From a virus (taxonomy: Monodnaviria > Loebvirae > Hofneiviricota > Faserviricetes > Tubulavirales > Inoviridae): a DNA stretch of 13,148 nucleotides. Where the stretch lies: the IMG/VR virus record IMGVR_UViG_638341089_000007; one strand, 5' to 3'. The notes under the pieces are model-generated. The model saw only the letters and a program-made list of their open reading frames with translations. It searched no databases and was not told the DNA's origin. The stretch's first letter is position 1. Each line of letters starts with the position of its first letter. Of the stretch, positions 6,905-12,752 are shown in pieces. A program made the position numbers and the translations under genes.

Positions 6905-7147
6905 ATGAAAATTCTGTCTACTGTTAAATATAAAGTTGCTCTGGCTTCAACTGCGCTTTTTGTTTCTGCAAGTTCTTTTGCGGCTGAAGGCGCTACAGGT
7001 GGTACTGATTATGCAGGTCAGGCAATGGATGCTTTGTTGACTCAGGCAAATGATCTCATTGGTAAAGTATGGCCTGTTGTTGTGGCTGTGGTTGGCGCTG
7101 GGCTTGCCATTCGTATTTTCAAAAAATTCTCTTCAAAAGCGGTTTGA
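6905..7147 (+). CDS. gVIII: Major coat protein pVIII precursor, 80 aa (signal peptide plus ~54-aa mature protein)
   Basis: GGAG Shine-Dalgarno 8 nt before ATG 6905; signal peptide [26 protein letters not shown], mature AEGATGG...[25 protein letters not shown]; the C-terminus matches M13 (KLFKKFTSKAS) and the IKe coat protein as I recall it. Confidence 0.85.
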
Positions 7148-7193: not shown

Positions 7194-8474
7194 ATGAAAA
7201 GGAAAATATTAATTCTTTCCGCTGTCCTCATTTCTCCTTTTTCACATGCTGAGTCATGGGAAAGCATTACTAAATCCACTTATCAAAGCTCTGCCTACGC
7301 TGAAAGTAAGCAAATAACCAATCAGGATGGCTCTAAGTCAACGGTTTACTATATTGATGCTGCTATGCAGGCCTCCGCTTGTCAGGGTGCTAAATCCAGT
7401 GCTCAGAGTGTATTTACTCAGGTTAAACCAACTTATGAGGGTATCTGGCCTGATTCTGAATTCCGTCTTGTTTTTACTGGTGATTGTACTTACAGCGATT
7501 CACCAGGGCAGAAGGATAAATATTGGTCTTTAACGGCTTATATTGTTGGTGATATTCAGCGTTCTGTTCCTGATGAAAAACCTACTGACCCGACACCAGA
7601 AGAAATTTGTGAAGCGAAGCCGCCAGAAGAAGGTGTATTTAATAATGTTGATTCATATGATGGTGGTCGTTATATCTACTATAACGGCTGTGAATATGAG
7701 GCTACTGGTGTCATTGTTTGTCAGGGTGATGGTACTGTTTGCGCTGCAACATGGAAGCCTACAGGTACTGTAGCTGACCCCTCTGATAAACCCTCAACCC
7801 CCCAAAATGGTGGTGGTGAGTCTGGCGGTGGTGAGTCTGGCGGTGGTGAGTCCGGTGGCGGTAGTTCTGGCGGTGGTGAGTCCGGTGGCGGTAGTTCTGG
7901 CGGTGGTGAGTCCGGTGGCGGTAGTTCTGGCGGTGGCTTTAGTGGTTCCAGTCTTTCTAAAGGTGATATTCAGTCTGCTATCGAAGGTGCTTCACCCAAA
8001 ATAGCCAGCGATATTCATGATAAATTAACGGAGAAAGACACTTCATCAGATGATAAAAAAAATGCCGATGAACAAACTAGGAATAATATAAATCGTCTTG
8101 ACGATTCCATTAACAATCTTACGCGGGGGGCTGGCCGTTTTGCTGACCCTTCAGGTGGTGATTCTCGTTATGGAAAGGGCGACTCTGAATTAGATGGCGC
8201 TTCTACTTTGGCTGATTCTGAATTGGGAATTGAAAAGGATTCTCACGGTGCTTTATGGGAAGCATTTTTAAATAAAGGTGCTATGCTGCCTAATTTACCC
8301 AATGGTAACGGCTGCTCTGATTTTATTATTTTTCCCGGAGAGGTTTATCAGATTGATATTGGTTGCGATAAATTACTGACTATTAAAGATGTTCTTTCAT
8401 GGGTTTTTTATTGCCTTACGTTCTGGTATGTCTTTACTTCTTTAACTTCATTGCTTCGCAAAGGGGGTGAGTGA
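7194..8474 (+). CDS. gIII: Minor coat / adsorption protein pIII, 426 aa, with Gly-rich ([10 protein letters not shown]) linker
   Basis: ATG 7194 gives signal peptide [19 protein letters not shown]; Cys-rich N-terminal domains; linker [30 protein letters not shown]...; hydrophobic C-terminal anchor; the ORF-track start at 7050 is an extension overlapping gVIII. Confidence 0.85.
7808..7937 (+). repeat. Tandem 15-bp and 30-bp repeats within gIII encoding the Gly-rich linker
   Basis: Two copies of (c/t)ggtggtgagtctgg (7811-7840) then three perfect copies of cggtggtgagtccggtggcggtagttctgg (7841-7930). Confidence 0.8.
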
Positions 8475-9917: not shown

Positions 9918-11183
9918 ATGCGCTCTGTTATTGTTGCTTTTTTATTTGCCTGTTCATTCTGCGTTTCTGCTGAAACTGTTAATTTAAACAATTCATCTGT
10001 TCGCTCATTTGTTCAGTGGTATTCTTCAAAAACTGGCAAGCCTGTTATTGTTAATCCTGATATTAAAGGAAACGTAACCGTATTTAATGCTGATGTTAAT
10101 CCAACAAATATTGATGATTTCTTTAAGTCTGTTCTGAATGCTAACGGTTTTGTCATGCTTTCTGGCAATCCTGCGGTAGTCTCTTTGCCGTCTAAATTAC
10201 CTTCACAGATGGTTTCGGATTCCGATGATTCTGATAACCAGTCTTATGATACTTTTCCTTCTGAGCCATCTTACCAGCCAGTACCTGTGGCGCTTACGGT
10301 CAGAAATTTTAAGCTGACAAAAGTTAGATCGTCCGATGTTCAGCAACTGATTAAAATTTATCTTGATTCTAATGGTGGTGGTAATGTCGTGGATTATCCA
10401 GGCAATAACTCGCTGATTGTTTCTGCGCCTGACGAGCTGCTGCCGGTTCTGTCCGATTTTATCAATTCTGTGGATGTTGCCCGCGATCAGGTTCTCATTC
10501 AGTCGCTGATGTTTGAAACCAGCTTGTCTGATGGCGTTGATTTATCGTTTGCGGCAGGTTCTGCATCCGGTCATAAGGTTGCGGGGGGCTTTAATACTTC
10601 TGCACTGGGTAGCGCTCTTTCTACGGCGGGCGGTTCTTTTGGTATTTTTGATGGTAACGTGTTGGCGCTGTCTCTGCGTGCTGTCCAGAGTAATTCACGC
10701 TCTAAGGTGATTTCAACGCCGCGTATTCTTACTCAGTCTGGTCAGACTGGTTACATTTCCGTAGGTAAGAATGTGCCGTTTATCACCGGAAAGGTAACGG
10801 GCGAATCTGCCGGGGTAAATAATCCGTTTCAGACTATCGAGCGTCATGATGTTGGCGTTTCTCTCAAGGTAACGCCTGTTGTCATGGGTAACGGGCAACT
10901 AGTTCTGACTATCGACACTCGCGCTGATTCAATCAGCAATGATGATCAGGCATCCGATATTATTACTAATCAGCGCCAGATTCAGACGACAGTCCAGATT
11001 AAGGATGGTCAGACGTTGTTATTGGGGGGGCTTATCGATTCATCGTTTAGCAATGCTGAGCGTTCAGTTCCAGTTATAAGTAAAATTCCTCTTATAGGCT
11101 GGATTTTCAGTAGCAAGGCAGACAGCAATGAACAGCGTATTATGTATATTTTGCTTACAGCACATATCATTCGTCCACTTTGA
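9918..11183 (+). CDS. gIV: Secretin pIV (outer-membrane export channel), 421 aa
   Basis: AGGAG Shine-Dalgarno before ATG 9918; signal peptide MRSVIVAFLFACSFCVSA; motifs shared with M13 pIV as recalled (VPFITGxVTGESAxVNNPFQTIER, DGQTLLLGGL, SKIPLIGxxFSS); the ORF-track start at 9825 is an extension overlapping gI. Confidence 0.9.
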   Translation: MRSVIVAFLFACSFCVSAETVNLNNSSVRSFVQWYSSKTGKPVIVNPDIKGNVTVFNADVNPTNIDDFFKSVLNANGFVMLSGNPAVVSLPSKLPSQMVSDSDDSDNQSYDTFPSEPSYQPVPVALTVRNFKLTKVRSSDVQQLIKIYLDSNGGGNVVDYPGNNSLIVSAPDELLPVLSDFINSVDVARDQVLIQSLMFETSLSDGVDLSFAAGSASGHKVAGGFNTSALGSALSTAGGSFGIFDGNVLALSLRAVQSNSRSKVISTPRILTQSGQTGYISVGKNVPFITGKVTGESAGVNNPFQTIERHDVGVSLKVTPVVMGNGQLVLTIDTRADSISNDDQASDIITNQRQIQTTVQIKDGQTLLLGGLIDSSFSNAERSVPVISKIPLIGWIFSSKADSNEQRIMYILLTAHIIRPL

Positions 11184-11224
11184 TGGATAGCGGGTAGGTG
11201 CGTGAGCCCTGCTCGCTATCCATC
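11182..11224 (+). other. Long hairpin immediately after gIV; candidate packaging signal and/or gIV terminator
   Basis: GATGGATAGCG (11182-11192) / CGCTATCCATC (11214-11224), 11-bp perfect stem with further pairing inside the 21-nt loop; no T-tract follows. In Ff phages the packaging-signal hairpin sits right after gIV. Confidence 0.4.
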
Positions 11225-11252
11225 AAATGGACATTATTGATTGGGGTAACTA

Positions 11253-11561
11253 ATGGATTCTTATGGGATTTTATCTGCTCTGGCAGAACGAACGATTACA
11301 GCGGAAGAAGCAAAAACAATGACACTTGCAGCCAGAAGTTCTTCGGCTCAGGTAAATGAAGCATCACTTGCTCTGTTACTGATTGATAATACTCTGGATG
11401 CGATCAAAGCAGCTGCCAGTGAAGGGAAAGGATACACTTTACTTCCTTCTTATGAGATTTCTTTAAAAGCCATTGATTTAGCAGAAGAATTTTTAAGGAA
11501 ACAATGCGGCTATGTTATTGATAACCAGAATGGCGTAAGGACGGTCTATTGGTTTATATGA
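11253..11561 (+). CDS. Hypothetical 102-aa protein (predicted helical), non-core prophage gene
   Basis: ORF-track ORF between gIV and the dif-like site; no family recognised. Confidence 0.5.
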   Translation: MDSYGILSALAERTITAEEAKTMTLAARSSSAQVNEASLALLLIDNTLDAIKAAASEGKGYTLLPSYEISLKAIDLAEEFLRKQCGYVIDNQNGVRTVYWFI

Positions 11562-11562
11562 T

Positions 11563-11607
11563 AACCCCGGACAGTGACAAAACTTGCTTTTGTTAGTGTC
11601 CGGGGTT
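11563..11607 (+). other. Imperfect long hairpin after the 102-aa ORF; candidate terminator or ssDNA origin-like structure
   Basis: AACCCCGGACA (11563-11573) / TGTCCGGGGTT (11597-11607) with inner pairing ACAAAA/TTTTGT; a T7 run follows only about 20 nt downstream (11628-11634). Confidence 0.35.
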
Positions 11608-11678
11608 GGCCAAGCCGAACAATTCTGTTTTTTTAGCGTTATTGCTGATTCGGCGCGGCAGCATTACGAGGAGATAAA

Positions 11679-11912
11679 ATGCAATTTTTCACATCCAGCG
11701 ATACTGTAATGTTATGTGCGAAGACCTGCGATCGCTGTGGTCGCCATGCGAAGACGGTGGTAGATGACATTGAGTTCAATGAGTTTCTGTCTGTTAATCA
11801 CTTAGCTGGATACGGTTCAATTTTTGGTGACAGTAATCGCTTAAAACTGGATTTATGCCAACATTGCCTGAAAGACGTCCTGGGCCAGTGGATTACGGTC
11901 TGTGACCAATGA
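11679..11912 (+). CDS. Hypothetical 77-aa protein with two Cys pairs (Zn-ribbon-like), non-core prophage gene
   Basis: Strong Shine-Dalgarno GAGGAG 5 nt before ATG 11679; CDRC (aa 17-20) and CQHC (aa 60-63) suggest a zinc ribbon; no family recognised. Confidence 0.55.
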   Translation: MQFFTSSDTVMLCAKTCDRCGRHAKTVVDDIEFNEFLSVNHLAGYGSIFGDSNRLKLDLCQHCLKDVLGQWITVCDQ

Positions 11913-11950
11913 CGGCACCGGTAACGCCAGTTCCCACCATCCTTACCATT

Positions 11951-11983
11951 GGTGCGCATAATGTACGACTCGTTATGTTGAAA
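11951..11983 (+). other. Second dif-like site (attP-type junction between tandem units)
   Basis: Same 33-bp GGTGCGCATAATGTACGACTCGTTATGTTGAAA as at 3652-3684, but with phage sequence rather than host sequence upstream. Confidence 0.75.
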
Positions 11984-12021
11984 AGGCCGCTGCGAAAATA
12001 GAATCCCGCAGCGGCCTCTTT
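11984..12021 (-). terminator. Second copy of the GC-rich hairpin terminator
   Basis: Same AGGCCGCTGCG...CGCAGCGGCCT sequence as 3685-3722, shifted by 8299 bp. Confidence 0.45.
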
Positions 12022-12047
12022 AGCATAACGTCATTGTGCGAACCAAT

Positions 12048-12752
12048 TCATAATGCTGCGGGAGCCACGTAATAGACAATCACAAATACAGCTAATGCTC
12101 CACCTGCTCTTACCCAGTTTGATATTTTGACTTCTATAAACCCGGGTATAAATGAGACTACCCCAGCAACTGCTGCTGAAAGAATTATTCGAAAGAAAGT
12201 GTATTGAAAGTTCGTTGGATTAGGTATAAATATTGCGATTATTATAAAAAGAATAACAAGTAAAATGCCAAAGCTAAATGCCGCTATTCTCTCGTGTGCT
12301 TTTGTCAATTTTTCTTTTCCTTTATTGTCAAATCCATATACTGGCATATCTTCATTAACGAAAAGATTCCTTATTTCTTTTGCAGAACGTTTGTCATGGG
12401 CTTTTACTATCCTTTGCATTGAAGCAAAAGCAGTGGAGCTTGGTTTAATACTATTATCATTCATTACCTCTCTATATTTTTTGTAATGAGCTAAGATAAG
12501 GTGAAGAACATCAATGCATGTTTCTGCAAGCCATTGATTCCATTGAGTATTATTTAATTCATCTACTGTTCTGTTATGTGCAGCGCAGTGTTCTAAATAG
12601 CCGAAAAAACTGTCTCCACATGAATTCACGGTATCAAAATCACATTTACCAGATAGGTAACACTCTAATGACTCAGTATATTTTTCATATAAACGCTCAA
12701 TTTCTTTTTTTTGATTATCAATGATACCGTGAACATCCATATCTGATTTCAC
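12048..12752 (-). CDS. Second copy of the hypothetical 234-aa membrane-anchored protein
   Basis: ORF-track protein identical to 3749-4453. Confidence 0.65.
   Translation of the reverse strand: MKSDMDVHGIIDNQKKEIERLYEKYTESLECYLSGKCDFDTVNSCGDSFFGYLEHCAAHNRTVDELNNTQWNQWLAETCIDVLHLILAHYKKYREVMNDNSIKPSSTAFASMQRIVKAHDKRSAKEIRNLFVNEDMPVYGFDNKGKEKLTKAHERIAAFSFGILLVILFIIIAIFIPNPTNFQYTFFRIILSAAVAGVVSFIPGFIEVKISNWVRAGGALAVFVIVYYVAPAAL

Follow-up and report, generated by a model that had tools for sequence, protein, structure and literature searches.

The window analysed here is the whole 13,148-nucleotide stretch of DNA of IMG/VR record IMGVR_UViG_638341089_000007, which carries a filamentous (Inovirus) prophage in an Escherichia coli chromosome. 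The last core gene of the prophage, gIV, is followed by two open reading frames (ORFs), here denoted orfA (11253..11561, plus strand, 102 amino acids) and orfB (11679..11912, plus strand, 77 amino acids), and then by the attachment site. The right end of the prophage has the order gIV, hairpin H1, slot 1, hairpin H2 with ~55 nt of accompanying sequence, slot 2 and attP, and the contents of the two slots are swappable; in the window, orfA occupies slot 1 and orfB slot 2. The reading we favour, at a probability of roughly 0.6, is that orfA and orfB are two independent, exchangeable moron-type accessory genes at the right end of a CUS-1/YpfPhi-type dif prophage. The original prediction, made from the letters of the window, had placed two ORFs directly 3' of gIV and regarded them as non-core cargo inserted between gIV and the att site. 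Both ORFs are present on the plus strand, and their cargo status is borne out by sister phages that retain the H2-attP backbone or a gIV 93% identical to that of the window and in which each gene is missing or replaced.

Slot contents in related phages

The gene pair is split in both directions among related phages. orfA occurs without orfB in L003 and L004, which are Salmonella prophages at dif, and in L005 and L113. The first three of these share gIV and gI with the window at 93% identity, encode an orfA homolog of 60% identity and keep both H1 and H2, and the place of orfB is taken by an unrelated segment of ~300 nt, here denoted X. In the other direction, orfB occurs without orfA in L026, L036/37, L038/39 and L111, whose secretins are 28-55% identical to that of the window and whose orfB homologs (54-82% identity) lie directly 3' of H2. 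The 7.9-kb contig of L005, which has no orfB, and the 8.7-kb contig of L026, which has no orfA, both overlap at their ends and are apparently complete circular genomes, so each gene appears to be dispensable.

Replacement of both genes is seen in L108 (E. coli ERP001), where the secretin is 93% identical to that of the window at the protein level and 87% at the DNA level and variants of H1 and H2 are kept. Slot 1 of this phage holds an unrelated basic protein of 82 amino acids with a pI of 11.7 (4381-4629; no Pfam match, weak match to PHROG 12343), and slot 2, from H2 to dif, holds a minus-strand ORF of 81 amino acids. The 82-amino-acid protein is the commonest occupant of the gIV-H2 slot; it was found there in ~17 IMG/VR inovirus loci (L109, L110, L115-L119, L121-L123 and L126-L130), on two secretin backbones, with window-type and with L026-type pIV. 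Exchange extends to alleles of orfA itself, since dS between the window and L003 is 1.88 for orfA compared with 0.40 for the flanking gIV and gI, indicating that the orfA allele was exchanged and has not merely diverged in place. A conserved morphogenesis role, which the original prediction had named as the contrary case, is rejected for these genes.

We infer that H1 and H2 are cis-acting elements of the phage backbone that work on the plus strand of the genome. Being conserved, they may also act as recombination anchors, between which differing genes would be swapped in and out; such exchange of cargo would be explicable by ordinary homologous recombination between conserved backbone elements.

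Several further arrangements were observed at these loci. Segment X (L003 10386-10683, L026 8353-8622, L036 5312-5559 and L012 6330-6577) is 82-100% identical between lineages and lies just 5' of attP in several of them, whether orfB is present or not; the window lacks it, it matches no family and it could be non-coding. In deletion derivatives an in-frame fusion joins the N-terminus of gII to the C-terminal portion of orfA or orfB, and the structural genes are all gone (L131 2807-3142, L132 386-703, P0005, P0024 and many cluster members named 'G2P, partial'). Such fusions are recurrent in public data and resemble miniphages or defective prophages. In L131, a contig of 3.5 kb, left-end cargo, a repressor-like gene, the fusion and orfB are present. 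Inovirus fragments are also found on plasmids. L012 5520-6577, on Klebsiella IncF plasmid NZ_CP132652.1, comprises the 3' end of gIV, H2, an orfB homolog and X, and L006 2851-4458 comprises an attP-like site, two minus-strand ORFs, H2 and orfB, with none of the core phage genes. These fragments suggest integration at plasmid Xer sites followed by decay.

Hairpins H1 and H2

H1 is a 27-bp hairpin that spans the gIV stop codon (11173..11232, plus strand) and folds at -24.5 kcal/mol as single-stranded DNA (z = -9.2). H2 is a 20-bp hairpin that starts 2 nt after the orfA stop (11563..11607, plus strand; -21.7 kcal/mol, z = -7.2). None of 200 shuffled sequences folded as well as either of them, and the expectation that each ORF is preceded by a long hairpin is thus upheld. 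Gene-specific regulation by these hairpins is not, because H1 and H2 persist whatever gene follows, as backbone elements do.

Alignments of the window, L003, L025 and L108, representing three sublineages (L029 and L002 are identical to the window across H1), gave 98.7% of cells paired in the H1 stem, with seven pairs changed on both sides and an invariant apical GGTGCGT..AGCC; a further H1 variant is present in L110 and L120. In the H2 model, built from nine sequences, six pairs carry compensatory changes on both sides, and pairing holds in 93.9% of cells. Slid controls reached at most 51% of cells paired. A covariance model of H2 (R1) scored 67-86 bits on the plus strand versus 27-44 bits on the minus strand and matched only inovirus-related loci. 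The higher plus-strand score of H2 and the conserved G-T wobble pairs in both hairpins argue that the plus strand, which is the packaged strand and mRNA-sense, is the one that folds. H1 is a backbone element of lineages with window-type pIV, and H2 is common to at least five enterobacterial inovirus lineages, whichever genes flank it.

Two conserved tracts accompany these elements. The first, identified in alignments 3' of H2 (11608..11660, plus strand), reads GGCCAAGCCG, then a T-run, then GCGGCGCGGCAG, and accompanies H2 even where no orfB lies downstream. The second (11913..11950, plus strand; …ACGCCAG.TCC.CCATCCTTACCATT) lies beside attP and is kept in L003, L026 and L108 directly 5' of the XerC arm. 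H2 was also considered as part of an orfB gene unit, and this was rejected on the presence of H2 without orfB in L003 and L108. The same holds for the possibility that H1 or H2 is an intrinsic (Rho-independent) terminator: no site was called in a scan of 10900-12100 and no U-tract adjoins the stems, the T-run after H2 beginning ~20 nt past the stem. Rfam searches over 10900-12100 gave chance miRNA-like matches on the hairpins only.

In Ff phages, hairpin A, which is the packaging signal, comes immediately 3' of gIV, and hairpins B and C of the minus-strand origin come next. H1 has the form of the Ff packaging signal, being a long imperfect hairpin of the packaged strand, 60 nt in length, covarying and directly 3' of gIV. 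The region as a whole resembles the Ff intergenic region in its long imperfect plus-strand hairpins starting right after gIV, with H1 similar in size and position; it differs in carrying coding cargo between the hairpins and in having no sequence similarity to Ff. The packaging signal hairpin of f1 is ~54 nt (nt 5511-5564) and that of IKe 57 nt, and beyond Xanthomonas few packaging signals have been identified in integrative filamentous phages (bioRxiv 10.1101/2023.12.30.573655). Because it is lineage-specific and abuts gIV, H1 would be the better candidate for a packaging signal, a 3' structure of the transcript being another candidate role. H2, which is common to lineages with very different morphogenesis proteins and the same host family, would for that reason be the likelier of the two to be an element recognised by the host, such as the minus-strand (complementary-strand) origin; a packaging signal is also among its candidate roles. 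The 'intergenic region' of the YpfPhi review is a different stretch, between the repressor-like gene and gII.

One locus, L039, contains two non-identical copies of H2 (6329-6399 and 6883-6953) around an insert of ~480 nt. The insert carries a minus-strand ORF of 136 amino acids, whose N-terminus is membrane-like and whose C-terminus has a cluster of Cys residues, and it seemingly arrived with its own copy of H2.

The orfA and orfB proteins

Both ORFs have Shine-Dalgarno sequences that can be read from the letters, each 5 nt 5' of its ATG: that of orfA (GGGGT, 11243..11247, plus strand) is weak and that of orfB (GAGGAG, 11668..11673, plus strand) is strong, as had been predicted. RefSeq annotates both coding sequences in strain F11 as hypothetical proteins. 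Compared with diverged homologs, omega is 0.13-0.24 for orfA and 0.05-0.19 for orfB, with synonymous sites saturated in both; this purifying selection indicates that both are real genes. Each protein matches a PHROG family of unknown function from end to end, with E values of 3e-68 for orfA and 4.5e-46 for orfB. The GC content of the two genes equals that of the phage core, so they are long-standing passengers of the window lineage. No match to either protein exceeded the threshold in Pfam, NCBIfam or PADLOC (PADLOC at chance level only), PDB sequence profiles gave no match, and neither DNA nor protein searches found one in a phage record collection that does not include Y. pestis or CUS-1 reference records.

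orfA is an acidic protein (pI 4.7) of a narrow family. An exhaustive HMMER profile search of 1.84 billion representative proteins recovered seven, all from the close family or fragments of it apart from one odd tandem-repeat protein (P0135), and a scan of one genome per species (185,579 species) gave a single contig that is probably mis-binned. The two parts of the protein evolve differently: the C-terminal 67 residues show 76% identity and an omega of 0.07, compared with 31% and 0.28 for the first 35 residues. The 102-residue protein had been predicted to be helical. The ORF stands; a purely helical fold does not, the structure model being alpha/beta with four helices and three strands and weakly winged-helix-like. 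orfA may be a lineage-restricted protein with a conserved, possibly winged-helix-like C-terminal scaffold, in which the divergent N-terminal 35 residues probably set specificity.

The orfB protein contains the two Cys pairs noted in the original prediction, CDRC (C17/C20) and CQHC (C60/C63). Across 61 sequences C20, C60 and C63 are invariant and C17 is kept in at least 90%, giving four conserved putative zinc ligands; one homolog (P0018) has Ser in place of the first Cys. The family motif is CDRCG…EF.EF.S…GYGS.FGDG…DLCQHC.K..LG.W. Of the earlier description as Zn-ribbon-like, the four cysteines hold and the ribbon fold does not. In the structure model, which is confident, the second CxxC caps a helix; the two CxxC motifs are not both in beta-hairpin knuckles, and a classical two-knuckle zinc ribbon was rejected on this ground. 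The fold, as modelled, is treble-clef-like.

The orfB family is large. A profile built from six homologs recovered 1,655 proteins, none of them with a Pfam family for this domain. Relatives are encoded on small Proteus and Providencia plasmids, on IncF Klebsiella plasmids, on a metagenomic contig that has partition genes and resembles a plasmid, next to Gabija-like genes in Pectobacterium defence islands and on many tailed-phage contigs. The upstream and downstream ORFs of 46 viral loci were compared for a recurrent neighbour of orfB, and no common family was found among them. In the Pectobacterium islands (L021-L024, 6001-6748) a 110-amino-acid orfB homolog lies just 3' of a Gabija-like pair (an OLD-family ATPase and a UvrD helicase) and an unannotated gene of 438 amino acids, and is convergent with a free-standing Xre_MbcA_ParS_C gene; a further inovirus lies 3 kb from this locus in L021.

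Some orfB relatives form the N-terminal part ahead of a toxin-binding module of type II antitoxins (CcdA, Xre/MbcA/ParS and MqsA were compared), either PF09722 or a weakly CcdA-like tail; MqsA itself has, like orfB, a four-Cys domain. The number of such fusions is small: a C-terminal Xre_MbcA_ParS_C or DUF4926 domain was found in 3 plus 1 among the 120 proteins listed, and the CcdA-like tail of the 102-amino-acid variants of L036 and L012 is weak (Pfam E = 0.008, below threshold; BLASTP E = 0.019). This modular use in fused relatives suggests that the orfB-type domain binds its partners as an independent unit and can be placed at the head of antitoxin-like proteins. It is possible, and we propose it tentatively, that orfB is a small putative zinc-binding module with a nucleic acid or protein partner, which would act as a regulator or decoy where mobile elements and host toxin or defence systems are in conflict. 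A regulator or decoy would be the most likely role of the stand-alone protein, since the same module heads antitoxin-like proteins elsewhere. Anti-defence and regulatory functions, both named in the original prediction, are candidates for the two genes.

Prophage context and alternative readings

Bases 1-3573 of the window are E. coli chromosome (yneE, tam, hipB and hipA) and are followed by the prophage, in which a minus-strand block of left-end ORFs precedes gII, gV, gVII, gVIII, gIII, gVI, gI (Zot-like) and gIV. The last of these (9918..11183, plus strand) encodes the pIV secretin; RefSeq names the protein at this position in strain F11 'secretin N-terminal domain-containing protein', and Pfam domains Secretin and Secretin_N are found in its homologs. 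A direct repeat (3650-3949 = 11949-12248) with a period of 8299 nt places the start of a second tandem copy at 11949, so at least two tandem copies are present and the window stops within the second. The attP-type junction of the two copies (11951..11983, plus strand) consists of an XerC arm GGTGCGCATAA, an 11-nt spacer TGTACGACTCG and an XerD-like arm TTATGTTGAAA, and the left junction (attL) at 3652 has the same GGTGCGCATAA-TGTACGACTCG-TTATGTTGAAA. The XerC arm is a perfect dif arm, and the spacer measures 11 nt versus 6 nt in dif. The form with the 11-nt spacer is also found in L003, L036 and the plasmid-like locus L006, L038 has a spacer of 12 nt, and an intact dif with the 6-nt spacer is present at attR of L003, L039 and L108.

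The dif site beside hipBA, the tandem copies and the gene order all agree with the published group (PMC4266046), and the element is therefore a CUS-1/YpfPhi-type filamentous prophage at dif. Prophages 99.5-99.8% identical to it are present in ~46 of 5,426 complete E. coli genomes, and the carrier genomes listed come mostly from human sources.

Other parts of the prophage showed features of their own. The left-end minus-strand block (3749-5168, GC 0.34) encodes a membrane-like protein of 234 amino acids and ORFs of 91, 104 and 60 amino acids, each in a PHROG of unknown function. It is swapped for other genes in the second tandem copy of F11 (L001 12565-13983) and for a Doc-family toxin gene in strain KFu015 (L002 3255-3989); the left end is the known variable end and differs even between tandem copies within one genome. 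Just inside it, at 3686-3719 and again at 11985-12018, lies a GC-rich hairpin (GGCCGCTGCG…CGCAGCGGCC) that is conserved in L003, L026 and L005; judged by eye, its T-rich minus-strand tail (TTTTC) fits a terminator for the minus-strand left-end genes, and the terminator scan did not list it. In gIII (window 7793-7957) eight copies of a 15-nt tandem repeat encode a linker, and the homologous gIII is annotated as frameshifted in F11.

The right end of this prophage copy has the arrangement known from CUS-1/YpfPhi, two plus-strand ORFs between the secretin gene and attR of a dif prophage. Matched by position, description and cluster names, orfA and orfB appear to be YPO2280a and YPO2281, respectively, of the Yersinia pestis phage YpfPhi and of the E. 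coli K1 prophage CUS-1, which carries homologs, now in another E. coli strain; in both cases the genes follow the secretin gene next to attR/dif of tandem copies, and no difference is apparent. Gonzalez 2002 and Derbise 2007 are reportedly further sources on YPO2280a/YPO2281 and the CUS-1 homologs. The exact orfA and orfB proteins each occur on at least 1000 public contigs under the names MULTISPECIES or Enterobacterales, always as hypothetical proteins. YPO2280a and YPO2281 adjoin attR, have 'no predictable function' (Derbise & Carniel 2014, PMC4266046) and sit where CTXphi carries ctxAB, and CUS-1 is 99% identical to YpfPhi over 7.1 kb that include their homologs (PMC4266046). A literature search found no functional study of YPO2281 or YPO2280a. 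The genes and their position are thus already known, and the class to which they belong, filamentous-phage cargo next to att, is well known.

Among the other explanations of the pair, one would make one or both proteins life-cycle factors acting at att, as directionality or Xer-activating (XafT-like) factors or as regulators of replication or lysogeny. Both genes adjoin attP, the order H2 - orfB - attP is constant across at least five lineages of inoviruses and recurs in a plasmid remnant whose att-like site is 1.1 kb distant, and the 11-nt spacer of the window attP is unusual. Both proteins are small, orfA is modelled as winged-helix-like, and the orfB-type finger replaces the DNA-binding head of antitoxins elsewhere. 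XafT, the Xer activation factor of the satellite phage TLCphi, is likewise a small protein of an Xer-dependent element encoded near att. We nevertheless consider such a role unlikely, as sisters without orfB (L003/4/5 and L108) or without orfA (L026 and L036-39) are integrated at dif or apparently circular, and the orfB family is widespread in tailed-phage contigs and chromosomal islands. No HTH, DUF3653 or Xis-type family match was obtained, family-level similarity to XafT was not detected, and both proteins are acidic. A link of orfB to Xer sites on plasmids was rejected as well, the nearest cer/dif-like sites on two Proteus/Providencia plasmids being ~4 kb off.

A further reading, which we regard as rather improbable, treats the right end as a cassette system in which H1 and H2 would be single-stranded DNA recombination sites, similar to attC, for capture and exchange of genes across phages and plasmids, and the orfB family would be zinc fingers that neutralise or regulate toxin-antitoxin or defence modules. 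The likeness to integron cassettes lies in single genes between conserved, imperfect, strand-specific hairpins and in the L039 insert between two H2 copies. The differences are the lack of an integron integrase and of R''/R' core sites, with AAC...GTT at the stem base only, and H2 was rejected as an integron attC site for want of R'/R'' cores.

The position shared with ctxAB raises the question of host-fitness or virulence cargo, which could lie behind the modest in vivo advantage of YpfPhi and CUS-1 reported in mice and infant rats (PMC4266046); most of the listed carrier E. coli genomes come, as noted above, from human sources. ctxAB of Vibrio cholerae CTXphi are likewise accessory genes between the core morphogenesis genes and the att end of an XerCD/dif phage. 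They encode a secreted AB5 toxin, unlike the two small acidic proteins of the window, which have no relation to it in sequence or fold and in which neither a signal peptide nor a membrane segment is obvious by eye. The phenotype reported for CUS-1 was that of an insertion in the virion-protein gene puvA (PMC4266046), and orfB relatives occur in environmental phages and plasmids without a pathogen link. We therefore think it quite improbable that the pair serves host fitness.

That the pair forms a toxin-antitoxin module, one of the options in the original prediction, or another obligate two-gene module is very improbable and was rejected on the distribution of the genes. Two adjacent small co-oriented genes on a mobile element would fit, as would the occasional fusion of orfB-like domains to antitoxin modules. 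Against it, the genes are inherited independently, each being found without the other in several lineages, and they are separated by a 117-nt gap with the conserved H2 and do not form a tight operon; neither matches a toxin or antitoxin family in Pfam, NCBIfam or PADLOC, and the orfA family has 7 matches versus 1,655 orfB relatives. Least credible of all is that the ORFs are chance frames in a non-coding, Ff-like hairpin intergenic region, since, although conservation in the region is highest in the hairpins and no promoter is predicted there, synonymous changes are saturated with amino acids conserved (omega 0.05-0.25), both ORFs have full-length PHROG matches and the orfB model is confident.

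Several observations weigh against two independent accessory genes and the roles proposed for their products and for the hairpins. Within E. coli the pair is invariant: 49 of 49 genomes with window-type gIV (≥95%) have both ORFs (≥99%), so cargo status rests on sister lineages and not on close relatives. The constant position of orfB in at least five inovirus lineages could mean a phage-related role. Neither the promoter scan of the region nor the terminator scan of 10900-12100 predicted a site, and the roles proposed for H1 and H2 would follow from Ff analogy alone. The acidity of both proteins argues against simple DNA binding, and, as given above, antitoxin-module fusions are few and the CcdA-like similarity is below the Pfam threshold.

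Two independent, exchangeable accessory genes between conserved hairpins remain the reading we prefer, and it does not overturn the current understanding of these phages. The new elements are the slot-and-hairpin organisation, the covariation seen in H1 and H2, and how large and widespread the orfB family is; they offer useful leads that would not surprise a specialist. The YpfPhi review names the end-of-genome ORFs as obvious unexplored candidates for a fitness effect in the plague bacillus and invasive E. coli K1. The right-end ORFs can now be treated as separate exchangeable units, the large, unnamed four-Cys family of orfB merits a functional screen, and H1 and H2 are testable candidates for the packaging signal and the complementary-strand origin of this phage group.

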